The notes: generated by a model from the sequence alone, not told the origin. DNA of 64,000 bases from an uncultured Acidobacteriota bacterium (GCA_963796275.1 CAWCKY010000003.1:288001-352000); one strand, 5' to 3'; positions 28,291 to 50,296 are shown, counted from the stretch's first letter. Numbers and translations: made by a program.

Positions 28291-28420
28291 AAATAGACTC
28301 TGAAGCCTCAGAATATAGGGTTCATGTATCTTGATAAACTATCGACTATGCCGCTTTCGTAATTCAATTCATCTAAATAACATTAAATTCAGCTTTCTCT
28401 GTGGTTGATCACGGGATGAC

Positions 28421-28585
28421 CGGAAGCCAATTCCCCATTTATCGGGAAGTCAAGCTAGGGAATGGATTCCCTAGCCGTCACTCTTCGCCGAGCCTCAGGC
28501 AGCAAAGTCGTTGTAAACACAGCATCAAATAGAACCAGCGGCAACAGTGCGTTGTGGTACGGATACTGCTTTACCGAAGTCCGGT
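28421..28585 (+). promoter_or_regulatory. Sigma-54 promoter (28555-28570) with upstream palindromic enhancer (28454-28475)
   Basis: TGGTACGGATACTGCT fits the -24/-12 GG-N10-GC pattern; perfect palindrome GCTAGGGAAT-gg-ATTCCCTAGC about 100 bp upstream; homologous copy at 45569-45735. Confidence 0.75.
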
Positions 28586-28634
28586 CGGTTTATTGGACCG
28601 GGTCCCCCTGCCCGGCGTGCTGATCGTATTTTTG

Positions 28635-28670
28635 TCAGGCTTTAGCCGGATGATCCCGACTGAAGCCTGA
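28635..28670. repeat. REP-like hairpin
   Basis: tcaggctttagccgg...ccgactgaagcctga imperfect inverted repeat. Confidence 0.45.
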
Positions 28671-28703
28671 GGAACCTCAAACTGAGAACGCGAGATTGAT
28701 CAC

Positions 28704-31199
28704 ATGAAGAAACGAATATTGAAGGTCGCGCTCATCCTGATTGCCGTGGTTACAGTCATGATCATTATCGCCGGACGCGACAAGCCGATGCAGCAGGTGC
28801 AGGATGAAGCGATGCGAGCGGGCCGTGATCTGGCATCATTTACCATAGCGGATGAAGATTATTTCCATGAGATGGATGGCGGGGTCGCGTTGACACCGGA
28901 TGAGGTGAAGGGTCGAAACACTTGGATTGTCTGGACTGGAGGCAACGATCGTTTCTGGGACGAGATCGCGAGGAGAAGCGTCGGAGGACTGGATCTGCTC
29001 AAGACGCTGTCGTCTTACGATCCGGAGAAGGATCTCCGCCACTCGGCCGAAGAACGTGAGCGGCTGAAGGGCATCTACAAGGCGAGCCGCGACAACCGCT
29101 GGCGCTATCTGGGTCTCGTTAATGAGCCGTGCTTTGAGAAAGCTATCGGACCGAACGAAAAGCGCTTCGGTCTCTGGTTGGATCGACGGCGGCCGGATTG
29201 CTCTTCAGATCCTTTCGAGAACGAGGAGAAATATCCGGGAGTAGCGATCGGAGCGCGCGGCAGCAACCTGACGGCCGGATCCTTCTATGGCTACGCCAGC
29301 GGCATCGTGGGTCTGCGTCTATTCCCGAACCCGGACTTCGACGAGCCCGCGGCAAAAAAATGGGATCCGGTCAGATACTATACTGATCCTTCATATTATG
29401 ATTCGAAAGATCTGATCAAGCCTTACCGGGTGGGTATGTCATGCGCGTTTTGTCATGTTGGCCCCAATCCGGTTAAACCGCCGGCGGATGCGGAGAATCC
29501 GGGATGGGAGAACCTCAGTTCAAACGTAGGCGCCCAGTACTTCTGGGTCGACCGCATCTTATCCTGGCAGGCGGACGAGACCAATTTCCTCTTTCAGCTA
29601 TTGCATACAGCGCGGCCCGGCGCGCTCGATACTTCGCTGGTTTCGACCGATTACATCAATAACCCGCGAACCATGAACGCCGTCTACCACCTCGGTCCGC
29701 GCCTCGGCGCAGCGAAGCAGTGGGGCAGGGAGAAGCTCTCCGGCGGCGGTCTCGACAACAAGCAGTTGAACGATTACGTGTCGAGCGGCCGGCTCACCGA
29801 ATTCTTCCAGCAGCCGGACATCGTATGGACGCCTAGCGTGTTAAAAGATGGCGCCGATTCAGCGGGCGCTCTGGGCTCCCTCAATCGCGTCTACCTCAAC
29901 ATCGGCCTCTTCGGCGAGGAGTGGCTATTGCATTTCAATCCGCTGGTCGGCGGCAAGCGGATCACGCCGATCGAGGTCAAGGTCGCCCGTAAGAATTCAG
30001 TCTATTGGCAGGCGACGGAGGCGCAGACGTTCAACATGTTGCTCTTCTTTCTCAAGGGCGCAACTCCGCATCGCCTGAGAGAAGCCCCCGGCGGACCGGC
30101 CTATCTGACCGAGAGCCGAGCTACGATCGATCGCGGCAAGGCAGTCTTCGCCGATAACTGCGCCCGCTGCCATTCGAGCAAATTGCCGTCACTCCCGAGA
30201 GGTTCCGATCTCGGCAACTGCGCCGGTCCGAACTATCTCGAATGCTGGAACCGGTACTGGAGCTGGACGAAGACGAAAGAGTTCAAAGCGAAGATGCGGG
30301 AGATCGTCATGGCCGATGATTTTCTGAAGGACAATTTCCTCTCGACCGATCTGCGCGTCCCGGTCACGCTTTTGCAGACCAATGCTTGCAGTCCGCTCGC
30401 CACGAACGCTATCGCCGGAAATATCTGGGACAACTTCTCATCGCAAAGCTATAAAGCGCTGCCGTCCGTCGGAACGATCACGGTTCATCATCCGATCACC
30501 GGCGAAGAGCGTCAATATCAGATGCCCGCAGGCGGCCGTGGCTATACGCGCCCGGCATCGCTGGTGAGCCTCTGGTCGACGGCGCCGTTTCTGTTGAACA
30601 ACTCCGTCGGTAAGTTCGAACCGAACCCCTCTGTCGAAGGCCGTATGCGATCATTTCAAGACTCGATCGAACAGATGCTCTGGCCGGAGAGGCGAAAGAG
30701 GGATGCCGTTCTGGGCGACGTGGTGCCCGGTGTTATCGACCGTACGACCACGACCAGCTACCTGCGGGTGCCTGCCGGCTATCTGCCCGATTTTCTGCAG
30801 GAGTTGCTGGATCCTGCGGCCCGCTATTTTCCCTGGTTGTTTTCCACCGAAGGGATCGAGATCGGGCCGATCCCTGCCGGCGTACCCATCAACCTGCTGG
30901 CCAACCTGGAACTGGTCCCGGAAAGCGACGATCCGGACGCGCAACTCGCACACGGGAAGCGGCTGCTGGCATTGCTGCTCAAGGCCAAGCGCGACCTGAA
31001 AGCCATACCGAAGGGCGCCACAGACGAAGACGTCCGCAAGGTCTTCGCGAACCTGGTCGAACCTCTCCTGGAGTTGAACAAATGTCCCGATTTCGTCGTC
31101 AACCGCGGCCACTACTTCGGGACCAGCTACTTCTCGGAAGAGCCGGGCCTGAGCGACGCCGATAAGAGGGCGCTCATCGCGTTCTTGAAGACCTTCTGA
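28704..31199 (+). CDS. Large exported di-heme c-type cytochrome (distantly RoxA/MauG-like), function unknown
   Basis: N-terminal signal/anchor; CAFCH and CARCH heme motifs; LWSTAPFLLNNSV and LIAFLKTF C-terminal motifs. Confidence 0.7.
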   Translation: MKKRILKVALILIAVVTVMIIIAGRDKPMQQVQDEAMRAGRDLASFTIADEDYFHEMDGGVALTPDEVKGRNTWIVWTGGNDRFWDEIARRSVGGLDLLKTLSSYDPEKDLRHSAEERERLKGIYKASRDNRWRYLGLVNEPCFEKAIGPNEKRFGLWLDRRRPDCSSDPFENEEKYPGVAIGARGSNLTAGSFYGYASGIVGLRLFPNPDFDEPAAKKWDPVRYYTDPSYYDSKDLIKPYRVGMSCAFCHVGPNPVKPPADAENPGWENLSSNVGAQYFWVDRILSWQADETNFLFQLLHTARPGALDTSLVSTDYINNPRTMNAVYHLGPRLGAAKQWGREKLSGGGLDNKQLNDYVSSGRLTEFFQQPDIVWTPSVLKDGADSAGALGSLNRVYLNIGLFGEEWLLHFNPLVGGKRITPIEVKVARKNSVYWQATEAQTFNMLLFFLKGATPHRLREAPGGPAYLTESRATIDRGKAVFADNCARCHSSKLPSLPRGSDLGNCAGPNYLECWNRYWSWTKTKEFKAKMREIVMADDFLKDNFLSTDLRVPVTLLQTNACSPLATNAIAGNIWDNFSSQSYKALPSVGTITVHHPITGEERQYQMPAGGRGYTRPASLVSLWSTAPFLLNNSVGKFEPNPSVEGRMRSFQDSIEQMLWPERRKRDAVLGDVVPGVIDRTTTTSYLRVPAGYLPDFLQELLDPAARYFPWLFSTEGIEIGPIPAGVPINLLANLELVPESDDPDAQLAHGKRLLALLLKAKRDLKAIPKGATDEDVRKVFANLVEPLLELNKCPDFVVNRGHYFGTSYFSEEPGLSDADKRALIAFLKTF

Positions 31200-31657
31200 T
31201 TAGTTTTTAGTTTTCAGGCTTTTATTAAGGCATAAAGCATCTTTTGTAGTTCTGTTATTCGATAATCGAGGTCGGAGCTTTTACCACGAGCAATAAAACA
31301 CAGCTGTTCAGCGATGATGCGCTGTGTATCGAGTTCAGCTAATGATCCAGTACGATTGATAAGAAATGGAGGAACTCTTTTGACCTTTGTCGCGCCTGTC
31401 CTTCGGCAATGTTTGATGGGATTGAAACAGACGCTCGTTTAATTTGATCCGTAATTCTATACAATTCGCTCTTGGGAAATTGGCGCACACTTCGTAGACA
31501 TAAACACACAACTCAATGCTCTTTTTCCATACCATCAAATCACGGGACGACTGGGATTTCATATAAATACCTTTCCAGGGTGGCCGAAGGTAGAAGTTAA
31601 CATAGCAACGAAAATCTAAACTGAAACTCGAAAACTAAAACTAAAAACTAAAAACTA
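31200..31657. mobile_element. Heptamer-repeat-armed cassette carrying a four-helix-bundle gene
   Basis: Left arm tagtttttagttttcag, right arm ctgaaactcgaaaactaaaactaaaaactaaaaacta; AT-rich; fills the whole cytochrome-GMC intergenic gap. Confidence 0.55.
31214..31562 (-). pseudogene. Four-helix-bundle protein (S23/IVS-like, Avd-related), frameshifted
   Basis: RDLMVWKKSIEL...FP; then KEFLHFLSI; then GSLAELDTQ..IA...ITELQKMLYALIK, spread over shifted frames. Confidence 0.75.
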
Positions 31658-31659
31658 TC

Positions 31660-33600
31660 ATGGCAGATTTCGACTATATCATCGTTGGGTCCGGTGCGGG
31701 CGGCGGGCCGCTGGCAGCCAACTTGGCAAGCGCAGGATTCAGAGTGATGCTGCTGGAGGCCGGCGGCGATCCCTGTGCGAACAGCGAGCTCGGACGTTTG
31801 ATGTATGAGGTGCCGATCTTTCACGGCCTCTCGACCGAGTTCGACGAGTGCCGGTGGGACTACTTCGTCCGTCATTACGCCGACGATGCGAGGCAGAATC
31901 AGGACAGTAAGATAGTTAAGGAAGACCCGGTCAGTAACATCGAAGTGAATGGCATCTGGTACCCGCGCGCCGGCGCACTGGGTGGCTGTACGACTCACAA
32001 CGCTATGATCACCGTCACGCCACAGAGCTGCGACTGGGACGAGATCGCCCGGATCACGGGTGACTCGACGTGGCGCGCCGACTATATGAACCGGTACTTC
32101 GCCCGGCTCGAAGACTGCGGCTATCGGCCGAGGCCGGGCAGCGCGAAATATATCGTTCGCGGCCTGCTCTGGTCGGCCATCGCCCTTCTGCGGGGGCGCA
32201 AGGATTGGCGTGACTGGGCGCACGGCCACGGGTTCAACGGTTGGCTACCGACGAGCGAAGCGGACCCGCGTCTCATCCTCAAGGATGGAGCGCTCCTGGG
32301 TCTGCTGCTCAATGCGATCAAGTTCGCGTTCAAGACCGGGATCGAGAATCCGATCGCCAGCCTGCTCACCCGGCTCGACCCTAACGATCTGCGTAACGGC
32401 ATAGACATGCGGGAAGGTCTGGCTTTCACGCCGCTTGCCGTGGGGCAGGGAAAACGGAAGGGGCCGCGGGAGCTGCTGCTCGCCACCCGCCAGACGCACC
32501 CGAACAATCTCACTATTCAACTTCATTCGCTCGCAACCAGGATACTGTTCGAGAAGAATCGCGCGGTTGGCGTGGAGTTCTACGAGGGCGAGCACCTTTA
32601 CGAAGCCGATTCCCATGCGAGGAAGCGGCGCAGAGATGTGGCGTTGGGGCGGCAGGGCGATGGAGAATTCCCGCCTTTCATCGTCCGCCAGGTCTTCGCC
32701 GCACGCGAGGTCATCGTCGCCGCCGGCGCATTCAACAGCCCGCAGCTACTGAAGCTTTCGGGAATAGGGCCGAAACAGGAGTTGGCGCAGTTCGGAATCG
32801 ACCTGGTGGCCGATCTGCCGGGTGTGGGAGAGAACCTGCAGGACCGTTATGAGGTCGGCGTGGTCTCGGAGTTTCCCCAACCATTCGGACTCCTGGAGGG
32901 CGCCACTTTTGCGCCGCCCAAAGCGGGAGGACCGAAAGATCGATTCTTCCTTATGTGGGAGAAGGGTGAGGGCATATATGCATCGAACGGAGTCCTGCTC
33001 GGAATACTTAAACGTTCGGACAGGAAGAGAGCAGAACCGGATCTCTACATCTTCGGCTTGCCGGGATACTTCGCCGGGTATGAGCCCGGATACTCGGAAT
33101 TGTTCGAGCGCCAGCGCAACCGCTTCACCTGGGCGATCCTGAAAGCATATACACATAACACAGCCGGACGTGTGACGCTTCAATCAAAAGACCCCAGAAA
33201 GTGGCCGCGCATTGACTTTCATTACTTCACCGAGGGCAGCGACCAGCAGGGCGATGACCTGGATTCCATTGTTCACGGCGTGCAATTCGTACGCGAGATG
33301 AATCAGAACCTGGGCGCCGTCCAGGAGATATGTCCCGGTCCGGCATACGATACGCCGCAGCGGCTGCGCGAATTCATTCAGAACGAGGCCTGGGGCCATC
33401 ATGCTTCATGCACCAATAAGATCGGAAGCGACCACGACGAGTACGCGGTGCTGGACAGCCGTTTCCGCGTGCGAGGCACGCAGGGGCTGCGCGTCGTGGA
33501 TGCTTCGATCTTTCCCAAAATACCCGGCTATTTCATCGTCTCCGCCATCTACATGATTAGCGAAAAGGCATCCGATGTGATTATCGAAGACGCGGATTAG
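31660..33600 (+). CDS. GMC family FAD oxidoreductase
   Basis: DYIIVGSGAGG, YPRAGALGGC..HN, GVGENLQD, WGHHASCT, LRVVDASIFP. Confidence 0.9.
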   Translation: MADFDYIIVGSGAGGGPLAANLASAGFRVMLLEAGGDPCANSELGRLMYEVPIFHGLSTEFDECRWDYFVRHYADDARQNQDSKIVKEDPVSNIEVNGIWYPRAGALGGCTTHNAMITVTPQSCDWDEIARITGDSTWRADYMNRYFARLEDCGYRPRPGSAKYIVRGLLWSAIALLRGRKDWRDWAHGHGFNGWLPTSEADPRLILKDGALLGLLLNAIKFAFKTGIENPIASLLTRLDPNDLRNGIDMREGLAFTPLAVGQGKRKGPRELLLATRQTHPNNLTIQLHSLATRILFEKNRAVGVEFYEGEHLYEADSHARKRRRDVALGRQGDGEFPPFIVRQVFAAREVIVAAGAFNSPQLLKLSGIGPKQELAQFGIDLVADLPGVGENLQDRYEVGVVSEFPQPFGLLEGATFAPPKAGGPKDRFFLMWEKGEGIYASNGVLLGILKRSDRKRAEPDLYIFGLPGYFAGYEPGYSELFERQRNRFTWAILKAYTHNTAGRVTLQSKDPRKWPRIDFHYFTEGSDQQGDDLDSIVHGVQFVREMNQNLGAVQEICPGPAYDTPQRLREFIQNEAWGHHASCTNKIGSDHDEYAVLDSRFRVRGTQGLRVVDASIFPKIPGYFIVSAIYMISEKASDVIIEDAD

Positions 33601-33703
33601 TTTTCAGTTTTTAGTTTTCAGTATTCAGTATTTTCGAATAACTGAAGTGCGCGAGATGCTCGATGCCTTGATGAGAGCTCTGAAAACTAAAAACTAAAAA
33701 CTA
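33598..33703. mobile_element. Short deletion derivative of the heptamer/four-helix-bundle cassette
   Basis: Same arms (ttttcag/tttttag ... ctgaaaactaaaaacta); interior 33635-33697 on + encodes RITEVREMLDALMRALKTKN*, matching the four-helix-bundle C-terminus. Confidence 0.6.
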
Positions 33704-34492
33704 TTCGATGAGCGGAGGAGTAAAGTTATAAGGCGGCCACGGGCCGGTGATCTCAAAGGTCAGCCCTTGTTCAGCCAGTTCGGCAGAGGCCCACTCGACG
33801 CGCCCGCGGAGATCGGCCCGGACGATTTTCGGAGTCAGGAAGGCCCAGTTCAAAACGATCTCCGCGGCGCCTTCTGAGTTTGCGGTTGCTATCACTTTGC
33901 GAGCACGGAGATCGGTGGCAAACCCGCGCAAATCATCTGCTACTCGGGCACAGGTCTTCTGCAGCCATTGATGCAGTTCCTTCTCAGCCGACACTCGCGC
34001 CCGCTGCTCCAGCAAATAACGCATCCCTGGAGGCAGGGAGGCGGGGTCCATTCCGGCCTGTTGACTTGACTGAAGCCCCTGCAGTGCTCTCTCCCGGTTC
34101 AGCATACCCTTGATGCCCCACTCCTCGTGATCTGTCATCCGATCAAGGAACTGAGATATGGTGCTCCCGTGTTTTCGCTGCAGCCCTTCCAAATTCTCCA
34201 GCGATGAGAAGATGGTGCCGAACCGGGCTGGAAACACAGGGGAATGAGCCATCGCCTGTTCGATAACTGCTTCGTGGCGCCAGGCTCGGATCCCCAGCCA
34301 GGAGATATCCTCCATTTTGGCCTCGGCTGCCGGCCCGGAAAAATCCGCCACCATAACGGTGCTCAGAACTGCCGCGAGACCGGCAAACCTCCGCACTTGA
34401 AGCGGCTGCTCGCCATCCACACCGGTTCCGCTGAGCTCCGGCAGCAGGCCGGACCGGGCGAAACAGAAGAGATAATAGGCAGTATTTGACAT
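33701..34492 (-). CDS. gvpL: Gas vesicle protein, GvpL/GvpF family
   Basis: YLFCF, HEAVIE, P.RFGTIF, EWGIK, LN.AFL, TGPWPPYNF. Confidence 0.85.
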   Translation of the reverse strand: MSNTAYYLFCFARSGLLPELSGTGVDGEQPLQVRRFAGLAAVLSTVMVADFSGPAAEAKMEDISWLGIRAWRHEAVIEQAMAHSPVFPARFGTIFSSLENLEGLQRKHGSTISQFLDRMTDHEEWGIKGMLNRERALQGLQSSQQAGMDPASLPPGMRYLLEQRARVSAEKELHQWLQKTCARVADDLRGFATDLRARKVIATANSEGAAEIVLNWAFLTPKIVRADLRGRVEWASAELAEQGLTFEITGPWPPYNFTPPLIE

Positions 34493-34494
34493 AT

Positions 34495-35976
34495 TTATTT
34501 CGCGCTCTCAGCCGCCGTTTCGCCATCGCTCCACGAAGCCGCGTCCCCACGTCGCCGCGTCGCTTCTCCAGACTTCTCCAGACTTTCTTTGATGGCAATA
34601 CCATATTCTTTGAGCTTCGACTGGATCGTCTTATAGTCGATTTGAAGCAGGCGGGATGCCTTTGCTTTATTGCCCCTGGTGAGGGACAGCACCTGGATCA
34701 AGACCTCGCGCTCGACCGCGATAGTACTGCGGCGCACTATCTCTTTCAGGGGAAGCTGGCGCCAGGGTAGCACAGGCGGCGGGGAATGGCGCGCCTGGCA
34801 GGGCTGCTGCACTAGGTTGAGATGCTTATCGGTGATGATGTCATCGGCCAGGAGCGTTGCCCGGCGAATTGTGGAGCGAAGCTGTCTCACGTTTCCCGGC
34901 CAGTTGTAAGCCAGTAGTGCCTCGGTTGCAGCTCTCGAAAAACCGCCGACGGATTTTTTTAATTCCGCATTGGTCAGTTCCAGAAACCGGTTGGCCAAGT
35001 AGAGAATGTCTTCACTCCGGTCCCGCAGTGGTGGGATAACGATGGTAAATTCGTTCAATCGGAAGAAGAGATCCTCCCGAAACGAGCCCAACGCCGCCAG
35101 GGTCTGGAGGTCCTGGTTGCTGGCAGCCAGGACGCGCACATCGACCGCCATCGGCTTGGAACCTCCGACGCGATTGATCACTTTCTCCTGCAGCACCCGG
35201 AGCAATTTAGCCTGCGCTGCCAGGGAGAGATTGGGGATCTCATCGAGTAACAACGTCCCCTGCTGGGCCTGTTCAAAGCGCCCGACCTTTCGGGCGTGAG
35301 CGCCGGTGAAGGCTCCTCGCTCGTGCCCGAATAGTTCACTCTCGAGCAGCGTCTCCGGGATGGCCCCACAATCGATCGGGATGAAAGGCGCCCGCGCTCT
35401 CAGACTCGCCTGATGAATAGCGCGGGCGACCAGCTCCTTGCCGGAACCGGTCTCGCCGATGATGAGCACGCTGAAGTTCGATCTTGCCACCCGATCGACA
35501 TCGGCGATGAGACGGCTGATGACATTGCTGGTTCCCATCATCTCCCGGAGTGAACTTTGATCACTCGTTTGGTAGCGGGGCTTGAGTTGGCGAGGGCGAT
35601 TCCGCTCCTTCAACGCCTTAGAGACCAACTGAATGACTTCATCGAGATCGAAAGGTTTGGCCAGATAGCTGTATGCTCCAGCTTTCATAGCTTCGACCGC
35701 GTTCCGCACTGCCGCATAGCCGTTGAGTAAGATGACCGGCAGCCCCTCATCCATATCCCTAACGTGCCGCAGCACTTCCAATCCGGTCAGGCCCGGCATC
35801 CTGTGGACGACAAGCAGGAGATATGGAGTCTCGCTGCGTATCATCTTCAATGCCGTCTCCCCATTAGACGCCACCAACGGGGTCAGGCCCTCCATCTCGA
35901 TGAGGTGAGCCAGCAATTCACGCGTGCTCTCCTCATTGTCCACGATCAGGATCTTGCAATTGACTGTAGTCATCAC
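34495..35976 (-). CDS. Sigma-54-dependent enhancer-binding protein (NtrC-like) with an atypical receiver domain
   Basis: GETGSGKE, ESELFGHERGAFTGA, LLLDEI, WPGNVRQL, Fis-type HTH; receiver has LLVVHRMPG where LLxD.xMPG is expected. Confidence 0.92.
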   Translation of the reverse strand: MMTTVNCKILIVDNEESTRELLAHLIEMEGLTPLVASNGETALKMIRSETPYLLLVVHRMPGLTGLEVLRHVRDMDEGLPVILLNGYAAVRNAVEAMKAGAYSYLAKPFDLDEVIQLVSKALKERNRPRQLKPRYQTSDQSSLREMMGTSNVISRLIADVDRVARSNFSVLIIGETGSGKELVARAIHQASLRARAPFIPIDCGAIPETLLESELFGHERGAFTGAHARKVGRFEQAQQGTLLLDEIPNLSLAAQAKLLRVLQEKVINRVGGSKPMAVDVRVLAASNQDLQTLAALGSFREDLFFRLNEFTIVIPPLRDRSEDILYLANRFLELTNAELKKSVGGFSRAATEALLAYNWPGNVRQLRSTIRRATLLADDIITDKHLNLVQQPCQARHSPPPVLPWRQLPLKEIVRRSTIAVEREVLIQVLSLTRGNKAKASRLLQIDYKTIQSKLKEYGIAIKESLEKSGEATRRRGDAASWSDGETAAESAK

Positions 35977-36367: not shown

Positions 36368-36598
36368 CTCAACTCCGCGATACCAACTCTATTGAAGAAT
36401 GTTATTGTTATGCTCTCCCTTCAAATTCTATGTTGTAACTACTTGTATTACGTCAAACCACATAGCATCAGATTCGAGTTCAAATGTAACCACCATCCAA
36501 CAGCACAAATCATAAATCAATAGAGCTTTGATAAGCTTAAAAGCTCTGGAATAAAGTGAACAAAGGCCGATAAAAATTTCATAAAAACGGCGAGAATT
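36368..36598. repeat. Diverged duplicate of the 40568-40791 regulatory region
   Basis: Collinear shared blocks accaact, gttattgt, ttcgagttcaaa, atcataaa, gccgataaaaat, cggc.agaa. Confidence 0.7.
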
Positions 36599-36792
36599 TA
36601 AATCAAAGCAATAAAGGTTGATACAAACTACGAGGAAATAAAGAGTAAGAGAAGGAAGAAAAGGAGAAGATCAAATGGGTTGCCCACTTTTCTTGGTTCT
36701 CTTCATTTCTTCGTAGTTTTAATTATCTGCCCCAATGTCGTCTACCCGGTATATTGAAAACCATCACCTGTGAAGTATGATAATCTTCCTTA

Positions 36793-39223
36793 CTAATGCC
36801 GCAATGCCACTAGCGGATCAAGCTTCATTGCTCTGCGCGCGGGCAAATAACAAGCGAGCAACGCAACACTCATCAACAATAGCGCAACGCCCCCGAACGT
36901 CAGCGGGTCAGTTGCACTCACCTCGAAGAGCAACGTCTTCATCAACCGAGTCAATGCCAATGCGCCGCCCAGACCAATTAGTATACCGATGAGCGTCAGT
37001 CTCATTCCCTGTCCGATAACAAGTTTCATTACGTCGCCCCTGTGCGCGCCGAGCGCCACCGAATCCCGATCTCGTGCCTGCGCTGCGTGACTGTATAACT
37101 CAGCAAGCCATATAGCCCCACGCTGGCGAGCGTCAGTCCCAACAGCGCGAACGCGCCGAGCAACACCAGATTGAACCGGCGTGACGAAGCAGAGTTGGCC
37201 ATCAGTTGTTCGATAGTCTGAATGTTGGAGATAGATTGATCTTTGTCTACGGCCCAAACCCGATCGCGCACTGAGGCAATCATCTGAAGCGGGTTGCCGC
37301 CGGTGCGCACTACCAGGGTCATATAGTTGTTATTCTGGATTTGCGCCAGCGGGAAATAAACTTGGGGATTGGCTTCCTCGTCCAATGCGGAGTGTTTGAT
37401 ATCTTTTAAGACGCCCACGATCTCGCGAGAGACGCTTCGAAAGCCGATGCGCTTGCCGAGCGAGTCTTCTCCGGGCCAGAAGTATTGCGCCGCCGCTTCA
37501 TTGATAACAACCACTGGCGGCGCATTGACGCCGTCGCTTTCAGCGAGCAGTCGGCCTCTTTGCAGCGGGATGCGCAGCGTCTTGAAAAAGTCCGAACTGA
37601 CTTGACAGATTCCGGCGTTGAAGCTTTCACCGGGCGGCAGCGGCCTGCCTTCGATAGCAAAGTCTGCGCTCCACAATGCGCCACTGAGCGGCAGTGGATA
37701 GGCCGCTGCTGTGGCTTCCACACCTGGTAATGAGCGCACGGGTTCCAGTGTCTGTTGAAAAAAGTTTGCCCTCTGGGCGCCCGCGTATTTTCCGCGAGGC
37801 AGTTGGATATCCATCGTCAAAACGCGCTGTGGATCGAGTCCCGGATCAACCCTGATCATCCGCTCAAAACTCCTGAGCAGCAATCCCGCTCCGATCAGCA
37901 ACACAAAAGCCAGGGCCACCTCGCTAACAATCAGCATGCTTCGTAAACGATGGTGCGGCGCTCCGGTAGCACTGCGCCCCCCCTCTTTGAGTGTCTCGTT
38001 GAGGTATGGTCGCGAAGCCCGAATGCCAGCAGCAGGCCGAAAACAATCCCGGCTAGCAGCGAGATGAGGAAGGTGAAACACGCTACACTGGTATCCAGTC
38101 GGATATCGTCCGTGCGCGGCAGATTAGCGGGGCTGAGCACCGGCAGCAGCTCAATACCCCACCAGGCCAGACACAGACCAAGCGTGCCCCCGCTGACAGC
38201 CAGCAGCAGGCTTTCCGTTAGCAACTGCCGCACGACACGCCAGCGGCCGGCGCCGATAGCTGCGCGAATCGCCAACTCCTTTTGCCGCGCGGCGGCGCGC
38301 GCCAGCAAGAGATTAGCGACATTCGTGCACGCAATCAACAAGACGAACCCTACAGCTCCCAGCAACACCAGTAAAGCCGTCTGAACCCTGCCGACGATCT
38401 GTCGTTGCAGGGCTACTACCCGCACATTTCCGCCGTTATTGGTCTGCGGATATTGCTCAGCCAGACGGCGAGCGATATCCTCCATCTCAGCTTGCGCACC
38501 TGCGATGCTGACGCCCGCTTTGAGCCGCGCCAGCACGGTCAGATAGCCTCCCTGGCGGCTGCTCAATTGCCCAGGCGTGAAAGCGGTAGGCAGATAAATA
38601 TCAACTTGATCGGCGAACTGGAAAGCTGCTGGAAGATAGGCTTTGCGCGGGAAATGGAAATCGGGCGGCAGCACGCCAATAACAGTGTGGACTTCATTGT
38701 TTAGCGTGATCGTCTGCCCAACGAGTTTTGGGTCTAAGCCGAAGCGCCGCTGCCACAACCCGTGACTGATGAGCGCGACGCGAGGCGCACCTGGCTGCTC
38801 TTCTTCAGGCAGAAACGTGCGCCCAAGCATAGCGCTGATGCCCACCAACGAGAAGAGACTGGCCGAAGCGCGCACGCCGCCCACGAACTCCGGCTCGCCA
38901 CTGCCTGTCAGGTTGATGTTATGCGAGTGCAGGGCCGCCATTCGCTCAAAGACATGATTTTGATTGCTCCAATCTACGAAATCCGCTACGCCCACTGGAA
39001 ATACGGGCAAGCCATACCTTGCCTCATGAATCGGATAATGTATCCAGACCATCACCAACGCTGCAGGATCGCGGTACGGCAGCGTGCGCAGTAATACACC
39101 GTTGACGACGCTGAAGATGGCCGTGTTTGCGCCAATGCCCAGCGCCAGCGTGAGGACAGTAATCACCGTGAATCCGGAATTTTTCAGCAACATTCGTATG
39201 CCATAACGCAGGTCTTGAAACAT
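36793..39223 (-). pseudogene. ADOP / MacB-like duplicated ABC permease, split by two apparent frameshifts (~38020 and ~37060)
   Basis: QDLRYG.R.L.K..GFT...[13 protein letters not shown]; [12 protein letters not shown]; EIGIR; ARRAMK.DP.VALRH across three overlapping ORFs. Confidence 0.85.
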
Positions 39224-39334: not shown

Positions 39335-39840
39335 CTACGCCTCAATTCCTTTGCCCTCTGATGACATTGTCATTTGGTCAACATGGTTCTTCAGCCAACT
39401 ATCGAATAGAGCGGGGTCGGTTGATGAAACAGGATTATCAGTTAAGAAAGAAAGTTCGCTTTCTTTGGCAGATTCTTCAGAAATGCTAAGGTCGGGACGT
39501 GACCTCATAATGAAAAACTGACTGGATTCGACAAGCTCCTTAAGTTGTGGCTGCCAGTGCTCGGGACCTGACATTCGACCACTGGCAATAATCTCATTGA
39601 CGATGGACTGATTGGGAAGTGGAATGAGAATCATTACTTGATAGTCTTCTCCGCTCTCCATCGACCAGACTTTCATCTGTCGAAAGCCATATCCAAGTAG
39701 TTTGGGAATGATCTTGTTTTTAAGTGGTCAACAAAAGCCTCCCAATTATATGACTTGACGCTATAGTGTTTAGAATAACACCACTGTTGATTGGCTGGTT
39801 GCGTAATTTGATCGGTTATTGACTCTGGTGATTGGCTCAT
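39335..39840 (-). CDS. Hypothetical small alpha/beta protein (possibly NIPSNAP/ABM-like); frameshift in an A-run near 39720
   Basis: AAGGAG RBS and ATG 39840; one added base joins MSQSP...YSVKSYNWEAFVDHL to the 39335-39676 ORF. Confidence 0.45.
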
Positions 39841-40096
39841 ATTTCGTAACTCCTTGATGGATGATAAGCGTAATATGAGCTTGTAAGCATTGAAATTCCT
39901 GAGCTAGCAAGCTCGCGGGTAAGCAAAGACGGCTGTGATTTTACCATACCTCTGTTTAAAGCCAATTGAAACCCTATACGCGGCAAGCGCCATACTAATC
40001 AGAGAATATGCCTACTCCTCAACTACCCTAATAGCTGAGGACGTAATGGCTGAGGACGCTGCTAAATGGCTGGTCGGTATATCGAGAGAGCTCAAA

Positions 40097-40448
40097 CTAT
40101 GTCGATGGAACTAATTCCGACTCTTCTTCAAGAAAAATGTGGAGCTCTTTAGTCGTTATCAAGGCCGGTTCCCAAACCCTACTCAATGCCCTGCTCACGC
40201 GTTCTTGGTCTACGAAAGGAATAAGCACGATGATATTGTAGATGCCTTTTTGGTCGGTTCGGTTTGCAGAAAAAACTTTGACCTGCCTTTTCTCTTGATC
40301 AGTCAACCTTGAATTTGCATTTGTATTTGGATTCGTTGGATTAAAAATCAATTCCAGGGTATCTTCGTGTGTTTTCCCTGAGAGCTTCTTCCCGGCCTTC
40401 CCCTACCACCACCTCATAGCTCACCATTACATATTTAGTGAATCCCAT
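40097..40448 (-). CDS. Hypothetical small protein; frameshift near 40378
   Basis: GAGGTG RBS and ATG 40448 (MGFTKYVMVSYEV...) joins the 40097-40351 ORF if one base is removed. Confidence 0.45.
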
Positions 40449-40567: not shown

Positions 40568-40791
40568 CTCAACCCGCGTCACCAACTTTTTTGAAAAAGT
40601 TATTGTCACGCTATCTCTTCTGTTTTATGATGCGATTACTGTCATCTCAAACAGCTCAGCATCGAGTTCGAGTTCAAACGTGACCATCACTTAAGTACGC
40701 GGATCATAAAACAAGAGGGTTTTGATTAGCATAAAAACTCGGAAAAAGTTCAATAAAAGCCGATAAAAATCCAATAAAGTCGGCAAGAACT
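40568..40791. promoter_or_regulatory. Divergent regulatory region with ~11-bp phased A-tract (ATAAAA-like) repeats
   Basis: Lies directly before the wHTH-AAA start; homologous to 36368-36598. Confidence 0.55.
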
Positions 40792-40793
40792 CG

Positions 40794-42172
40794 GTGAAAA
40801 CTATGACTTATGAATTTGGCCTGTATCGCTTCGATCCAAGTACCGGTAAGTTATTTAGTTCCGGCAATCCGATAGATATTGGACCACGGCTGGCCGAACT
40901 GCTAACGATCTTTATGCAGCACCACGGACAGGCGCTGGGAGACGAAGAGTTACTGGAGATGCTCTGGCCTGGCGACCAGAACAAGGGTGGAGAGAATCTA
41001 GCTGCTAACATCTTTAATCTGCGGAAGAAGCTCGGCGCAGGGCAATATATTGAAAGGATTGCCGGACGCGGATATCGTTTTGTCGGCGCCGTGAAAATGA
41101 TCGATCCAGATGCTTCGCCGCAGAGCTATCCGCTGCCGCCGGGCGGTGCCGTACCGCTCGATTCACCGTTCTACATTGCGCGGAGAACGGATGATGAGTT
41201 TTATAAGGCGATTGCGCGCCGCGACAGCATCGTCCTGGTCAAAGGTGGGCGGCAGGTAGGCAAAACCTCTTTGCTCGCCCGCGGGCTGCAAATCGCTCGC
41301 GAATCCGGAGCCACCGTCATCCTGACGGATTTGCAGCATCCGTCAGGCGAAGCTTTCTCAAGCGTGGAAAAGCTGCTGCTCGAGCTGGGAGAACGAATCG
41401 CTGGCCAGATGAATTTGAAGACCAGACCTCACGATGTGTGGAGCAGTCTGCTCAGCGCCAGCGCCAATTTTCACAATTATCTGCAACGCGAAGTGTTAGG
41501 CAAGATATCCTCTCCACTGGTTTGGGGGCTTGACGAAATAGACCGGCTGTTCGGATTTGATTACGCAAGCGAAGTGTTCGGACTGTTCCGGTCCTGGCAT
41601 AACTTGCGCGCACTGGAACCCTCAGGACCGTGGCGGCGGATGACGCTGGCCATGGCCTATGCAACGGAAGCCCACCTGTTCATCACTGATTTGAATCAAT
41701 CGCCATTTAACGTCGGCACCAAGCTTGTACTCGAAGACTTGACCTACGATCAAGTCGCCGAACTCAACCGGCAATATGGCGCACCACTCAAAGACGAGTC
41801 GGAGATCGCGCGATACATCGCTATGGTTGGCGGGCACCCTTACCTGGTGCAGCGGGGCCTTTACGAAATGACCGAGCACGGTTTAGACCTCGCTTCAATC
41901 GAAGGGAATGCCGATTACGATGAGGGAATATTCGGCGAACATCTGCGACGGATGTGGGTTTCACTGACCCGCGACGCTGATTTGTGTAATGCCGTGCGCG
42001 ATCTGTTGCAGGCCAAGCGGGGATTGGCGATCACCAACTTCTACCGACTGCGCAGCGCAGGGGTGCTGGTCGGTGATTCAGCACACATGCGCAGTTACGG
42101 TGCCAACTTTACGCCAAGTTTTTGAAGAAGCATCTTTTCTCCCCCGACAGCCCGGAGGTTTTTGATGATTGA
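40794..42172 (+). CDS. OmpR/ToxR-type winged-HTH fused to an AAA-like (AAA_35-type) NTPase; frameshift near 42085
   Basis: YEFG.YRFD...LRKKL...GRGYRF; [34 protein letters not shown]; conserved RCQLY tail lies in a shifted frame. Confidence 0.8.
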
Positions 42173-45100
42173 GTCTCCTCGCTTTTTTCGTGATTTGAGC
42201 TTGACCGATCGCGTTGAGTTCTTCGTCACTGGCGGGACAATGATGCCTGACGCGCCATCTTATGTTGAGCGGCAGGCCGATTGTGATCTGTATGACAGTC
42301 TCCTCGAGGGAAAATATTGTTATGTGTTGACCGCCCGCCAGATGGGGAAATCGTCGCTCACTGCGCGCACGGCGGCGAAATTGCGCCAGGTTGGCATCGG
42401 TGCTGTCGTGGTCGATCTGGCGGCGATCGGGCGCAACCTGACTGTCGAGCAATGGTATGGGAGCGTCTTGAGCTGGATTGGGAGAGGCATTGAGTTATCG
42501 GAAGGCGAGCTGGAAGAATTCTGGCAGTCGAGGCCGCTGCTCGGCCCGGTGCAAAGATGGATGTGCGCATTGCGCGAAATCATTCTTCCTCGCTATCAAG
42601 CTCAACTAGTCGTTTTCGTGGATGAAGTCGATTACCTGCTGGATTTGCCGTTCCCGATGGACGAGTTTTTCGCAGCGGTCCGCGAATGTTACAACATGCG
42701 CGCGGAAGACGCCGTGATGCATCGATTGACGTTTTGTCTGGTAGGTGTGGCGACGCCATCGGACCTCATCCGAAACAAGCGCACTACGCCATTCAACATC
42801 GGCCGGCGAATTGAATTGCACGATTTTACGGTGGCGGAGGCCGCACCGCTCGCGCGCGGGCTGAGACGCGACGATAAATTGAATGACTCCCTGCTCAAAC
42901 GCGTGTTGTATTGGACAAACGGTCATCCTTTTCTTACCCAACGTCTGTGTCGAGCTATAGCTGATGATGCTGGCGTCGAAGGTAAAGGTGACGTTGATCG
43001 TTTATGTAATGACTTATTTCTCACGCGCCGCGCACAGGAGTTAGATGATAACCTGCTTTTTGTGCGAGACAGTATACTTCGCAGCGAAGAGGACAAGGCT
43101 GCTCTGCTCGACTTGTACGGGAAAGTGAGAAGGGGCAAACGTGTGGAAGATGATAACACCAACACGCTTGTCATTATTTTACGTTTGTCGGGGGTCACGC
43201 GAACAGCAGACAATTACATTAAAGTTCGCAACCGCATCTACAAACGCGTTTTCGATCATGAATGGGTTGAGAGAAACATGCCTGATGCGGAATTGCGGCG
43301 GCAGCGCACGGCATACCGCCGAGGTCTATGGCGAGCCGGATTATTTGGTGGCGTCATCCTCTCTCTCATCGTGGCACTTGCAATCAATGATGTCAGAAGA
43401 CAGAAGGCCGCGCGAGACGTTGCCCAGAGCCTGCTATTGGCAGCGCAACCGCAGATATTACCGGATGAGATCGAAAAAGCTTATGCGTCCAGGGCTAAAG
43501 CGGAGAATCTGATTCGGATGGTTGCTTACAAAAATCATATCAAACAAGCGCAGGAGGCGTGGGAAGAATCCAATGTTGCTCGGGTCGAAGAGCTGTTGAA
43601 CTTCTGTCGACCGAAGGGTGGAGAGCAAGATCTCCGCGGGTTTGAGTGGCACTACCTTTGGCAAGCGAGCCATCAGGAAAGCCGATCTCTGAAACGTGAG
43701 AATCCGGTTGTAGCGTTACAATTCGCGCCGGACGGCAAGCGAATTGCTATTGGTGAATCTTTACAACCGGTAGATAGTGAAAAGTCAAAATACAGGATTG
43801 AATTCCTAGATTTGGATCGGGCAGTAACAATTGATTCGTTTGAGACGCAGTCAAGAGGTGATTTCAACAGAATGATCTTCACTCACGATTCGCGCAAAGT
43901 TCTGGTCGATGACGACCAGAATAGGGCCAGCTTATTGGATATGAAATCCGGCAAGAGCCTGGCTATCTTCAAAGGTCATGATCAGTCGTTGTCAGCGATT
44001 AATATATCAAGTGATGGACAAAGGATTGTGACGGGGGATACGCGAGGAAGGCTGCAATTTTGGGAAGTAGCAAAAGAGCCAAAGAGCAGAAGGCAGGAGA
44101 AACAGCAGCAGAACGTTACCTGGGTCGACCTCTCGCGGAATGGGAACCGGGTTGCGAGCGCAACAGGATCTAACGCGGTGAAAATATGGGATTTCTCTAC
44201 CGGGCGTGAACTGATGTCGCTGGAAACCAAAGAAGGAGTCTTCACGGTTGCTGCCTTCTTTCCGGATGGTCGCCATCTTCTGACCGCGACAAAAGACGGA
44301 GCTATGCAGGTCTGGGATCTTCGTGCAAGGGCAATCACGGCCAAATTAACGGGACATTTTGGTTCGCTTGTAGCGCTTGCATTCTCTCCTGACGGAGCGA
44401 AACTGGCAACAGCCAGCGACGACAGAACCGCCAGACTTTGGGATCTCGCAGCCCGGCGCGAACTCATCTCAATCAAAGGACACGGCTAATGGGTTTCTGC
44501 TATTTCCTGGTCACCTGATGGCAAACTACTCGCCACGGGCAGCGCAGACAGGTACGTCAAGATTTGGGATGTCGAAACGATGCTCAAAGAGGGCGTCGCA
44601 GTTGAGGGATCACGCGTAGAATCTTATTGGGCATCAGCGTTTTCTGAAGACGGCTTCCCCCTGGCGGTCGCCAAGACCAGCGATGGGAAAGTGAAGATAT
44701 TGCGCGTGCCATCTGGCCAAGAGGTGTCAACATTGTATGAATCGTACAACGACCTCCAGTTCGCGGTCTTCTCTCCTGATGCCGAAAGGGTAGCAACCTC
44801 TGGGATAGGGCCTTCGATAAGTATCTGGGATGTCCGGAGCGGAAAGAAAATAGTGTCATTGGCCGCGAAGACCGAGAATGTTTTTACGGTGGCCTTCTCA
44901 CCCGATGGGAAAAAGCTAGCTTCCGTTTACGATAACGATCGTACGTTGAAATCATGGGATACGACGACAGGGCAGGAATTATCTTCGCTCAAAGCCGACA
45001 ACAAGCTCTCATATCGGATAGCATTCTCGCCCGACGGGACGACCCTGGCTGCCGCTTGCGACAATGGCAATGTTATCCTCTGGAATATCGATACTGGTCA

Positions 45101-45474
45101 GTCAGTGCCTATCAAAGCACACAATGGCGTTGTCAGCACCATTGCCTTCTCATCAGACGGATTGAAACTTGCGACCGGGGGAAAAGACAACGCCGTCAAA
45201 TTGTGGGATGTGAAAACGGGGCGGAAATTGCTTGATATGGGACAGGCGGAATCTATTATATCGCGCAACCTTTTCACCCGACGGCAAAAATCTGATCACC
45301 GGCAATACTGAAGGTACAGTGATTATATGGAATGTCCTAACAGGACAGGAACTGATGATCCTGCATAAGCACGCAAGTTATGTGACTTCGATAAATTTCT
45401 CCAACGACGGAAGAGGTTTGGTTACTAGTGGCGAAGATGGGTCGGTAAAAGTCTGGCGGTTAACCGAACAATAG
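42162..45474 (+). pseudogene. AAA-like (AAA_35-type) NTPase, TM segment and WD40 repeats; in-frame TAA at 44487-44489 and frameshift near 45245-45260
   Basis: SYVERQAD, RQMGKSS, FVDEVD, TPFNIG, WTNGHPFLTQ; many FSPDG...WD repeats continue past both breaks. Confidence 0.8.
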
Positions 45475-45564: not shown

Positions 45565-45568
45565 TTAT

Positions 45569-45735
45569 CGGAAGCCATTCCTCATCGATCGGGAAGTCAC
45601 GCTAGGGAATTGAATCCCTAGCTATCACCCTTCACCGAATCTCACACAGCAAAATCATTGCAAACACAGGATCGACTGGCAGGCCGCGGCGGCGGCGTGT
45701 TGTGGTCCAGGCCTTGCCTTACTGAAGACCGGTTA
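45569..45735 (+). promoter_or_regulatory. Sigma-54 promoter (45703-45718) with palindromic enhancer (45601-45622) for the gvp operon
   Basis: TGGTCCAGGCCTTGCC fits GG-N10-GC; GCTAGGGAAT-tg-AATCCCTAGC; collinear with 28421-28585. Confidence 0.75.
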
Positions 45736-45786
45736 GCCAGGACACTCCCTGCCTGGCCGCGATATTTTATTTTGAAAGGAGAGGTA

Positions 45787-46060
45787 ATGATGGCGAATGT
45801 AGCCAGAATCTTCTATTGAATCTCCCAACCTGGCGGAGATGCTCGAACGCATCCTGGACAAGGGTATAGTGATTGATGCCTGGGTCAGGGTGACGTTGAT
45901 CGGGATCGAACTGCTCGCGGTGGAAGCGCGAGTGGTGATCACTTCGATCGACAGATATTTGCAATATGCTGAAGCTATCGGCCTCATAGTACCAGTGGCG
46001 CGGCCTCCGGTAATTGACACACCGGAACCGGCAGCGACACCGACACCAGCACCGGCATAA
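45787..46060 (+). CDS. gvpA: Major gas vesicle shell protein GvpA; apparent +1 frameshift at ~45808 (ORF intact from 45839)
   Basis: [36 protein letters not shown]...YL.YAEAIGL; strong RBS aaaggagagg before ATG 45787/45790. Confidence 0.92.
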
Positions 46061-46163
46061 ACCAGGCCATTAGCCATTGGTCATTGGCGGTAATGATGTT
46101 GAGACGCAATGACCAATGGCAGATGGAAAATGACAGATGACAAATGAAAAATGGAGGAGCCAT

Positions 46164-47204: not shown

Positions 47205-47206
47205 GA

Positions 47207-49168: not shown

Positions 49169-49430
49169 GGAATCTCTTCTGGAGAACCAGAAAAAAGAGG
49201 CGGAGCGGGACGCGCCAACCGCGCTGGTCTGTTCCGACACCGAGCGTGTCTCGCTCTGCGAACTCCTCGACCGAATCCTTAACAAGGGGGTGGTGATGGC
49301 GGGAGCAGTGACGATCTCAGTGGCGGACGTAGACCTGCTCTCCCTCGATCTGCGCATGGTTCTGACATCCGCCGCGATACTTAGCAAGAAGTGGCAGCCG
49401 GAGTCCGTAACAGTATCAGGTGATAAATGA
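49158..49430 (+). CDS. Gas vesicle protein, GvpA/J/S family
   Basis: SLCELLDRILNKGVV.AG.V.ISVADVDL..LDLR. Confidence 0.85.
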   Translation: MFSEESLLENQKKEAERDAPTALVCSDTERVSLCELLDRILNKGVVMAGAVTISVADVDLLSLDLRMVLTSAAILSKKWQPESVTVSGDK

Positions 49431-49792
49431 AACCGATCGAAGAACTCAGAGTCGAGTTTGAAACTGTCAGTGATTTTGCCCGCGTCATGCAGGCCGGAGC
49501 ACCGGCGGTGGCGACTACCTCACAGGCCGGTCCCCGGATCAACCTTGATCCCGATCAAGTCAAGAACGGGTTAGGCCAGTTGGTACTTACGCTGGTCAAA
49601 TTGCTGCATGAACTCTTGGAGCGCCAGGCCTTGCGGCGCATCGAAGCCGGTACTCTGACTCCGGACGAGATTGAGCGGATCGGGATGACTCTCATGAGAC
49701 AGACGGAGGAGATTAAACGTCTTCAGCGAGAGTTCGGCTTGAACGACGAAGACCTCAACCTCGACCTGGGGCCGCTTGGTACTCTGTTTTGA
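49427..49792 (+). CDS. gvpK: Gas vesicle protein GvpK
   Basis: GLGQLVLTLV.LLHELLERQA.RR...DLNLDLGPLG. Confidence 0.93.
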   Translation: MKPIEELRVEFETVSDFARVMQAGAPAVATTSQAGPRINLDPDQVKNGLGQLVLTLVKLLHELLERQALRRIEAGTLTPDEIERIGMTLMRQTEEIKRLQREFGLNDEDLNLDLGPLGTLF

Positions 49793-49922
49793 GGCAGGTT
49801 TCAGTTTTCAATCAAGTGATCTCGAGCGAAAACTGAGGAGTTACAACCTAAAACCTGAAACTGATAATTTGAAAAGACTTGAAACTGAAAACTGAAAACT
49901 GAAAACTGATAACTTATACAAG

Positions 49923-50249
49923 ATGCAAAATAAAGGCATATCACATTTTGGCCCGCCTTCCACCATGCAAATGTTTGATGTCCTGGAGCGCGTGCTGGAC
50001 AAAGGAGTCATCATTGCGGGTGATATCAGGATCAAGCTGATAGACGTCGAGCTACTCACTATTCAAATCCGGCTTGTGATCTGCTCCATCGATAAAGCCC
50101 GAGAGATAGGGATGGATTGGTGGGCTGACCACCCGCTCTTCAGCAACCGCCGAGAGGCGGAGTTGCAGGCAGCTACACTTGGCCGGATTGAAGAGAGATT
50201 AACGAAGCTGGAAGCCTCCCTGAAACACGCGCCTCACCGCGAGGAATGA
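49923..50249 (+). CDS. gvpJ: Gas vesicle protein GvpJ
   Basis: DVLERVLDKGVIIAGDI.I.L.DVELLTI.IRL...S.DKA.E.G.DWW. Confidence 0.88.
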   Translation: MQNKGISHFGPPSTMQMFDVLERVLDKGVIIAGDIRIKLIDVELLTIQIRLVICSIDKAREIGMDWWADHPLFSNRREAELQAATLGRIEERLTKLEASLKHAPHREE

Positions 50250-50296
50250 GCTTTCCTCTGTGTCTTTGTATTTTTTCGGATTCTCGTGGTTATTTG

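Follow-up and report, generated by a model that had tools for sequence, protein, structure and literature searches.

A mosaic island of an uncultured acidobacterium with a reduced gas vesicle gene cluster and a second copy of its putative sigma-54 promoter region

Organisation of the island

We analysed a stretch of 64,000 nucleotides from an uncultured Acidobacteriota bacterium (GCA_963796275.1, CAWCKY010000003.1:288001-352000), called the window below. It contains a mosaic island of about 22 kb with a gas vesicle (gvp) gene cluster, the gene of an NtrC-type sigma-54 activator, a gene pair encoding a c-type cytochrome and a GMC oxidoreductase, a pair of STAND-type regulatory genes and an ADOP-family permease gene. 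Two non-coding regions of the island, Block A and Block B, are each present in two copies. Copies A1 and A2 of Block A precede the cytochrome gene and gvpA, respectively, and are the main subject of this study. All features are listed in Table 1.

Table 1. Features of the island and its flanks (positions in the window; nt, nucleotides; aa, amino acids; ORF, open reading frame; wHTH, winged helix-turn-helix)
Feature	Position	Strand	Remarks
Left flank, TPR gene	27385-28290		stop codon is the island edge
Mosaic island, ~22 kb	28291..50296	.	between the stops of the TPR gene and the TPR-thioredoxin gene
Block A1	28421..28632	+	copy of the predicted gvpA enhancer-promoter-leader; before the cytochrome gene
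Block A1 dyad, GCTAGGGAAT-GG-ATTCCCTAGC	28454-28475		22-bp palindrome
Block A1 -24/-12 element, TGGTACGGATACTGC	28555-28569
Membrane-anchored two-haem c-type cytochrome	28704..31199	+	831 aa; Pfam; uncharacterised family
23S_rRNA_IVP-family gene	31214..31562	-	three frames, two frame breaks; heptamer arrays alongside
GMC flavoprotein oxidoreductase	31660..33600	+	646 aa; Pfam
GvpL-type gene (GvpL2)	33701..34492	-	2 nt 3' of the activator gene; Pfam GvpL/F
NtrC-type sigma-54 activator	34495..35976	-	REC, AAA+ with GAFTGA, HTH_8; Pfam
Block B1	36384..36600	+	orphan copy of the wHTH-AAA upstream region; phased A-tracts
ADOP-family duplicated permease	36793..39223	-	three frames
Two small ORFs	39335..40402	-	113 aa at 39335-39676; 84-101 aa at 40097-40402
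Block B2	40579..40793	+	215 nt directly before the wHTH-AAA_35 gene; phased A-tracts
wHTH (Trans_reg_C) + AAA_35 STAND-type regulator	40794..42125	+	Pfam
AAA_35 - hydrophobic segment - WD40 gene	42162..45474	+	Pfam
Block A2	45569..45778	+	predicted gvpA enhancer-promoter-leader; before gvpA
Block A2 dyad	45601-45622		2 changes relative to the A1 palindrome
Block A2 -24/-12 element, TGGTCCAGGCCTTGC	45703-45717
gvpA	45788..46060	+	start ATGATG; GvpA frame from ~45821
gvpF1	46137-46922	+	Pfam
gvpG	46947-47204	+	Pfam
Two-domain ArsA/Get3-type ATPase	47201-49168	+	Pfam
gvpJ	49158-49430	+	Pfam
gvpK	49427-49792	+	Pfam
gvpS/M-like	49923-50249	+	Pfam
Right flank, TPR-thioredoxin gene	50297-51604	-	stop codon is the island edge

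Comparison with close relatives identifies the 22-kb region as a true insertion. In 9 of the 12 same-family genomes, the SLT and TPR-thioredoxin orthologues from its flanks share a contig and are separated by only 27-2567 nt. One further genome has them at a distance of 7.7 kb, another has them on different contigs, and in the twelfth (G404), which was counted as a miss, the SLT gene was not found. The same-genus genome G402 has an empty site with the gene order GAF-SLT-TPR-(244 nt)-TPR_Trx-YfiH. This empty site is itself composed of short tandem and palindromic repeats. No tRNA gene was found in the window, and no att-like repeat at the two island edges in comparison with the empty site of G402. 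Pfam detected no integrase or transposase domain among the island ORFs that were scanned, in which the small ORFs were only partly covered. The genome measures 9.46 Mb at 94.7% completeness with a contamination estimate of 5.2%, and the island lies inside a contig of 1.68 Mb.

A duplicated promoter region

The two copies of Block A match over 97 nt at 81% identity in a repeat search and over 166 nt at 76% identity with blastn, which found exactly these two copies in the whole genome. Each copy combines a dyad with a -24/-12 promoter element. The dyad of A1 is perfectly palindromic, the -24/-12 spacing is retained, and the 22-bp palindrome, allowing up to 4 mismatches, occurs nowhere in the 9.46 Mb except at the two Block A copies. 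The positions considered critical are largely kept between the copies (6 of 6 for TGG/TGC, 20 of 22 for the dyad). Both promoters read TGGT, so that the pattern TGGC-N8-TGC misses both. The genome contains rpoN (C3:1419712).

The same two elements were found in front of gvpA in related gvp clusters. A wide scan with a GvpL alignment yielded 40 loci (L034-L073), and 36 loci of relatives with gvpA were searched for the motifs. In 17 of these 36, gvpA is preceded at constant distance by the promoter pattern TGG-N9-TGC, compared with about 5 loci expected by chance in 400-nt windows from the window's own frequency. Near-variants with CGG or GGC occur at the promoter position in several more loci, and near-variants are also present in G239 and G147, the two closest loci of an earlier sample described below. 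A dyad of the type GGAAT-N2-4-ATTCC is located 226-292 nt 5' of the reference codon, again in 17 of the 36 loci, against a background of 43 hits in the rest of the 686 kb. Dyad and promoter are spaced 106-126 nt apart in the relatives; the two Block A copies, with 112 and 113 nt, fall within this range. On this motif-level evidence, Block A is the putative enhancer dyad, -24/-12 promoter and leader of the gvp family.

When the whole genome was searched loosely for a dyad combined with a promoter, 22 hits were obtained, most of them chance matches, and we claim no third member of the regulon. A scan for sigma-70 promoters and terminators over 28200-37000 performed no better than on shuffled sequences. 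Rfam gave no match with E up to 1 over 28000-50500; hence, neither Block A nor Block B is a known RNA family. Repeats of the CTATCGA/GATAGTT type form a large imperfect palindrome (45490-45566) just 5' of Block A2, and one unit of this type lies at 28338-28352, about 70 nt 5' of Block A1. The Desulfobaccales loci carry two gvpA copies, without a strict TGG-N9-TGC before them.

The activator and its receiver domain

The activator gene was identified by strong Pfam matches (Sigma54_activat, 1.4e-66; HTH_8, 5.2e-10). An orthologue lies 5' of the gvp cluster in 32 of the 34 loci with enough upstream DNA; the two exceptions are L065, in which it is in pieces, and the rearranged locus L071. In our first sample of ten loci with GvpK, a full-length orthologue was found only in G239 and G147. 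In the window, by contrast, activator and gvpL are in inverted orientation, at a distance of 9.6 kb from gvpA.

The receiver domain has a valine (V57) at the phospho-Asp position, as determined by alignment with NtrC1 and two paralogues from the same genome. Among the 32 gvp-linked orthologues this residue is Asp in 28 and Ala in 4 (L052, L061, L063, L072), and the activators of G239 and G147 also have Ala. Because Asp is kept in most orthologues and was lost in more than one branch, its loss is a derived state rather than a trait of the family. No histidine-kinase domain was detected by Pfam in 51 ORFs of the window, i.e., 22 ORFs of a first scan plus 29 of the 30 flank ORFs of at least 110 aa, the 30th being already among the 22. 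A receiver that lacks the phospho-acceptor Asp indicates that the activator is probably not switched by a kinase. The branches leading to the window proteins are long (0.46 for the activator and 0.65 for ArsA, with medians of 0.057 and 0.11, respectively) and fall outside the Terriglobia clade. Some relatives (L040, L055, L064, L066, L068) have a gene for a single-domain receiver between gvpF and gvpA.

The gvp cluster

Of 400 other genomes sampled from the phylum, 20 have GvpK; the two same-family genomes in the sample do not have it. GvpL/F gave no match in any of five same-family genomes, including G401. The 40 loci of the wider scan come from Terriglobia and other Acidobacteriota, Desulfobaccales, Desulfatiglandales, other 'delta proteobacteria' and one member of the Verrucomicrobiae. 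Their gene order is activator, Hsp20/GvpH, Cdc48-like double AAA protein, GvpL, GvpF and GvpA (sometimes two), followed by a 264-aa gene, GvpN, GvpF, G, ArsA, J, K and S. GvpN occurs in all 33 loci with enough downstream DNA, and hits to the Cdc48-like protein and Hsp20 were obtained in 38 and 37 of the 40 loci, respectively. Orthologues of GvpL2 are 34-53% identical in the 40 loci, and overall the window proteins are 34-64% identical to those of the relatives.

Judged by its genes, the window cluster is a reduced member of this predicted sigma-54-dependent family. Searches of the genome with the G239 proteins (tblastn) found no orthologue of Hsp20/GvpH, the Cdc48-like ATPase, the second GvpF, the 264-aa gene or GvpN, and the best GvpN match in the genome stayed far below its cut-off (40.9 vs 266.8 bits). 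GvpO (PF05800) was not matched either; this negative is weak, as the control genomes gave no match in the same search. All three Gas_vesicle-family genes of the genome are located in the island. The ArsA protein of 655 aa shows both P-loops and DTAPTGH motifs.

The gvpA gene has a frame break near codon 7: the GvpA frame scores 101.4 bits with a cut-off of 100, and the start codon is out of frame, while gvpA of the relatives reads MAKVQKSTDSSSLAEVVDRILDKG in a single frame. A programmed +1 frameshift or re-initiation was considered and set aside as unsupported. Over its 49-aa core, GvpA shares 65-77% identity with the copies of 45 relatives, which are 88-100% identical among themselves. Except for gvpA, the gvp genes and the activator gene are open and of full length despite their long branches, which argues for selection during most of the branch. 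Production of gas-vesicle-like structures by the cluster appears doubtful from its gene content and from the frame break in gvpA. A perfect 14-bp hairpin, GCCATTGGTCATTG ... CAATGACCAATGGC, lies between gvpA and gvpF (46063-46125); it may be an attenuator or stabiliser that sets the ratio of gvpA to gvpF.

The cytochrome and GMC genes

The cytochrome has a hydrophobic N-terminal anchor and two haem motifs (CAFCH at 247 and CARCH at 486), and the GMC protein starts straight at the glycine motif that binds flavin adenine dinucleotide (FAD). The same-genus genome G401 has orthologues of both proteins (78% and 81% identical, respectively), with 48 nt between the genes. No DNA resembling Block A was found 5' of the G401 cytochrome gene; DNA similarity to the window does not set in before codon 31. 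Since G401 possesses the pair without Block A, the Block A1 copy in front of the cytochrome gene is the derived one. The cytochrome gene thus appears to be native to the genus and to have later acquired a Block A copy of about 215 nt. Its position behind Block A1 suggests that it was probably drawn into the regulon of the gvp activator, and the motifs make it likely that gvpA and the cytochrome gene are jointly controlled by this activator. When the neighbours of the G401 pair were mapped to the window's genome, only a TPR match of 44% identity was obtained, and no former location of the pair was found.

In the window, the cytochrome and GMC genes are separated by an insert of 460 nt, which contains the antisense remnant of the 23S_rRNA_IVP-family gene; because of this insert, the GMC gene may not be co-transcribed. 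Proteins of the IVP family form four-helix bundles, and an inverted copy of the tail of the IVP gene lies 3' of the GMC gene (33630-33678). Arrays of the heptamer (G/T)AAAACT occur at 31198-31266, 31610-31658, 33595-33706 and 49845-49915, flanking the GMC gene and between gvpK and gvpS. Arrays of three or more units were counted at least 132 times across the genome; hence, they represent a dispersed repeat family of this genome rather than a feature of the island.

The STAND pair and Block B

The two copies of Block B match over 196 nt at 70% identity (blastn) and are the only two in the genome. Their A-tracts recur with a period of 10-11 bp in the last 110 nt, a periodicity reached by fractions of 0.0005 and 0 of 2000 shuffles. 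Block B2 directly precedes the wHTH-AAA_35 gene. Block B1 lies 408-624 nt from the start of the activator gene; it has the same orientation as B2 and therefore faces the 3' end of the permease gene, away from the activator.

The same contig carries an intact paralogous STAND pair at a distance of 830 kb (G000:C3:1158767-1163866, with the wHTH gene at C3:1158791-1160083). Its wHTH and AAA-WD40 proteins are 51% and 44% identical to those of the window, respectively, and its upstream region shares only chance matches of 8-12 nt with Block B. The WD40 region of the paralogue, about 1185 aa long, consists of very regular, near-identical 42-aa repeats. The WD40 gene of the window is interrupted twice, by an in-frame TAA in one of the repeats (44487-44489; GHG*WVSAI) and by a frameshift around 45260-45284. 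Orthologous pairs occur in G016 and G251, two genomes of the same family that lack gvp genes. A scan of 400 genomes from the phylum revealed wHTH-AAA homologues in 11; GvpK is present in just one of these 11, G365, where the homologue (29% identical) lies 394 kb from the GvpK gene. Matches to the STAND proteins, the cytochrome and the GMC protein were absent from all 40 gvp loci and from the ten earlier loci. From this distribution, we regard the pair as a separate, self-contained two-gene module that is native to the bacterial family. Block B2 is probably its own promoter region, and B1 would be an orphan copy without a role.

Just after Block B1, a hairpin at 36625-36719 has 21-nt arms that are 90% complementary; it encloses a 13-codon ORF, MGCPLFLVLFISS, behind AAGGAG. 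Block B1 could drive a short transcript that stops at this hairpin, or the hairpin may be the terminator of the permease gene.

Other genes and quality of the assembly

One of the frame breaks in the ADOP permease gene falls in the overlap of two high-scoring segment pairs at 37976-38024, which holds a run of seven C, and the other is near 37059. None of the 40 gvp loci has such a permease, and one of the ten earlier loci (G384) gave weak permease hits of 23-25% identity. The two small ORFs match no Pfam, NCBIfam or PADLOC family. By eye they resemble paralogues, with a common motif (YQVMILIPLPNQ and YNIIVLIPFVDQ), and may belong to an unnamed family of small proteins. PADLOC, applied to 8 island proteins, returned weak repeat or P-loop matches only and no assignment to a defence system.

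Frame breaks are widespread in this assembly. More than one frame is required by 3 of 46 sigma-54 AAA+ cores and by 24 of 78 ADOP loci genome-wide, of which 10 are single-gene-sized and the rest tandem arrays. Because frame breaks are so common in the genome, real pseudogenes and assembly errors cannot be distinguished here without read support. A single public DNA run contains 13% of the words of the stretch; its contigs are short and give zero cover over 43680-46335. No public RNA run was listed with words of the stretch. One read contig lacks a base at 38948 at a depth of 2.7, which is too shallow for interpretation. Two apparent joints in the reads (33621/33622 to 49879/49883) were rejected as repeat artefacts, as their sides are only 23-26 nt within heptamer arrays.

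Discussion

The original prediction described the region as a 22-kb island interrupting housekeeping genes, tied together by two duplicated regulatory blocks, one of them with phased repeats, and encoding an activator whose receiver lacks the phospho-Asp and which has no kinase in the window. All these elements were recovered: most same-family genomes have the flanks at most 2.6 kb apart, G402 has an empty site, each block occurs twice in the genome, the A-tract periodicity of Block B is stronger than in almost all shuffled sequences, V57 occupies the phosphorylation position, and the 51 ORFs scanned show no kinase domain. Only half of the placement of the phased block held. It stands before its own wHTH gene, and the other copy is near the activator-gvpL unit yet faces away from it. 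The proposed synteny check in relatives likewise gave a divided answer, as the activator accompanies gvp but the STAND, cytochrome and GMC genes do not.

We consider it moderately probable that the region is a mosaic island with a reduced gvp cluster, in which the activator likely drives gvpA and the cytochrome gene through the two Block A copies, and to which the STAND pair is unrelated. The activator would bind the dyad in Block A2 and thus drive gvpA-F-G-arsA-J-K-S. A copy of this enhancer-promoter-leader unit would have been placed before the resident cytochrome gene as Block A1, so that both sigma-54 promoters would fire together under one activator. The STAND pair and the ADOP permease would be family-native genes that landed at the same spot, outside the regulon. 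The anatomy of the island, its synteny, the conservation of the motifs and the missing genes are direct observations. From the dyad, the -24/-12 element and the geometry common to both copies, we infer that the activator would bind the dyad and that the two promoters would fire simultaneously. The claim of the original prediction that the activator acts on both promoters is therefore a good inference for gvpA and the cytochrome gene, while co-transcription of GMC is uncertain.

Several findings weigh against this interpretation. The strict promoter pattern is missed in 19 of the 36 related loci, and so is the strict dyad in 19 of 36. Retention of the critical positions is not significantly above chance at 76% identity (estimates of about 0.19 and 0.07). 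The DNA specificity of the activator could have drifted along its long branch, and the IVP remnant lies antisense in the insert between the cytochrome and GMC genes. With a frame break in gvpA and five family genes missing, the gvp half of the regulon may be defunct. Lastly, B1 and B2 are about 75-81% identical in alignment although non-coding, which could reflect a function of B1.

Some of these findings agree with the view that the gvp cluster is a decaying relic of an old transfer and that Block A1 is a leftover of rearrangement which does not regulate the cytochrome gene. GvpN, Hsp20, the Cdc48-like ATPase, the second gvpF and the 264-aa gene are not found in a genome that is 94.7% complete, the gvpA, WD40, ADOP and IVP genes all have frame breaks, the GvpA core is divergent, and the activator and ArsA branches are long. 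We nevertheless regard this view as rather unlikely, since the activator, GvpL2, GvpF1, G, ArsA, J, K and S are intact, the A1 dyad is a perfect palindrome with the -24/-12 spacing in place, and the frame breaks, frequent as they are in this assembly, may be errors. Errors of a larger scale, in which the island or its joins would be a metagenome chimera, seem very improbable. The contamination estimate and the fragmentary contigs of the public run, none of them over 43680-46335, would be compatible with a chimera, but the contig of 1.68 Mb has syntenic flanks on both sides, the heptamer arrays found throughout the genome are present in the island as well, and the cytochrome/GMC, ADOP and STAND genes all have same-genus or same-family relatives.

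The original prediction went further and placed the STAND pair at the head of a cascade: the AAA_35-WD40 sensor and the wHTH-AAA_35 protein would bind Block B and set the level of the activator, which would then fire both promoters. An activator that lacks the phospho-Asp and has no kinase in the window needs another input, and one of the only two copies of Block B in the genome lies a few hundred nucleotides from its start. Winged-helix domains of the OmpR/PhoB type bind direct repeats, and the phased A-tracts at 10-11 bp would suit such binding. Against the cascade, B1 is oriented away from the activator, and none of the 40 and ten loci links the STAND pair to gvp. The pair is native to the family, with a paralogue of its own and orthologues in gvp-less genomes; the upstream region of the paralogue shows no likeness to Block B, and the WD40 gene carries a stop and a frameshift in the assembly. 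We therefore judge the full cascade improbable, and a new sensor-to-organelle cascade is not supported. A related proposal holds that B1 is a working operator through which the WD40/AAA_35 and wHTH-AAA_35 proteins set a kinase-independent activator, so that the stripped gvp genes and a periplasmic two-haem cytochrome are co-induced. Its chances are slim, and only the position of B1 speaks for an operator; if true, it would describe a STAND-triggered programme linking a gas-vesicle-derived structure to a redox enzyme.

If our preferred interpretation of a reduced gvp cluster sharing its activator with the cytochrome gene is true, it would reveal a cis-regulatory code in which a GGAAT-N-ATTCC dyad precedes a -24/-12 promoter by about 100 nt. 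The gvp cluster family concerned is common among Terriglobia of soil and peat and in genomes of Desulfobaccales. The regulation of gvp clusters of uncultured organisms would become testable in a heterologous host. The cytochrome gene would also provide a clean natural case of regulon growth, with G401 showing the state before the copy, and a cluster without gvpN, Hsp20 and the Cdc48-like ATPase on a long branch would be a natural experiment on dispensable accessory ATPases.

Comparison with known systems

The window shares with the 40-locus family the activator, GvpL, gvpA, F, G, arsA, J, K and S, including the order of the last seven genes, and, with the family as well as G239 and G147, a candidate -24/-12 promoter and GGAAT-N-ATTCC dyad before gvpA. 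It differs from the family by the lack of Hsp20/gvpH, the Cdc48-like ATPase, the second gvpF, the 264-aa gene and gvpN, by the Val at the phospho-Asp position of its activator, by the inversion of activator-gvpL and by its long branches. The REC-AAA+-HTH layout of the activator is that of FleQ-type enhancer-binding proteins, and FleQ chains were among its structure hits. FleQ likewise has a receiver without the Asp, and controls flagellar and biofilm genes.

The gvp gene order of the actinomycete Streptomyces coelicolor differs from that of the window. According to the accessible part of the Serratia article, the clusters of Streptomyces coelicolor resemble ours in coming from a soil bacterium, in lacking gvpN and in their doubted function, but they have neither ArsA nor a sigma-54 activator (PMC4982088). 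Full-text literature searches yielded no paper on acidobacterial gas vesicles, as judged from titles and the beginnings of abstracts; the gvp clusters in one matching paper, in the part that we could consult, are those of Desulfosporosinus. The dyad, the promoter copy and the reduced gene set were not met in the portions of the gas vesicle literature available to us, for which no dedicated search was made.

Castillo and Saier (2010) reported two-domain ArsA/Get3-type ATPases of about 640 aa in gvp clusters, often together with Hsp20, and named the acidobacterial phylum among those with ArsA; the activator, the promoter and the dyad are not described in the available sections of that account (PMC2963123). 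In Serratia ATCC 39006, the excerpts at hand state that an NtrC-like protein, GvrA, controls the sigma-54 promoter of gvpA1 and that gvpN mutants yield only small bicones (PMC4982088). GvrA was likened to the window activator by description, not by sequence. Both systems thus have a cluster-encoded NtrC-family activator and, in the window by prediction, a sigma-54 promoter before the gvpA operon, whereas Serratia, in the same excerpts, also needs GvrB and GvrC, is under quorum-sensing control, possesses gvpN and gvpV, and has no ArsA (PMC4982088). Within the accessible parts of these two articles, NtrC-like control of a sigma-54 gvpA promoter is already established in Serratia (PMC4982088), and the two-domain ArsA of gvp clusters was noted in 2010 (PMC2963123).

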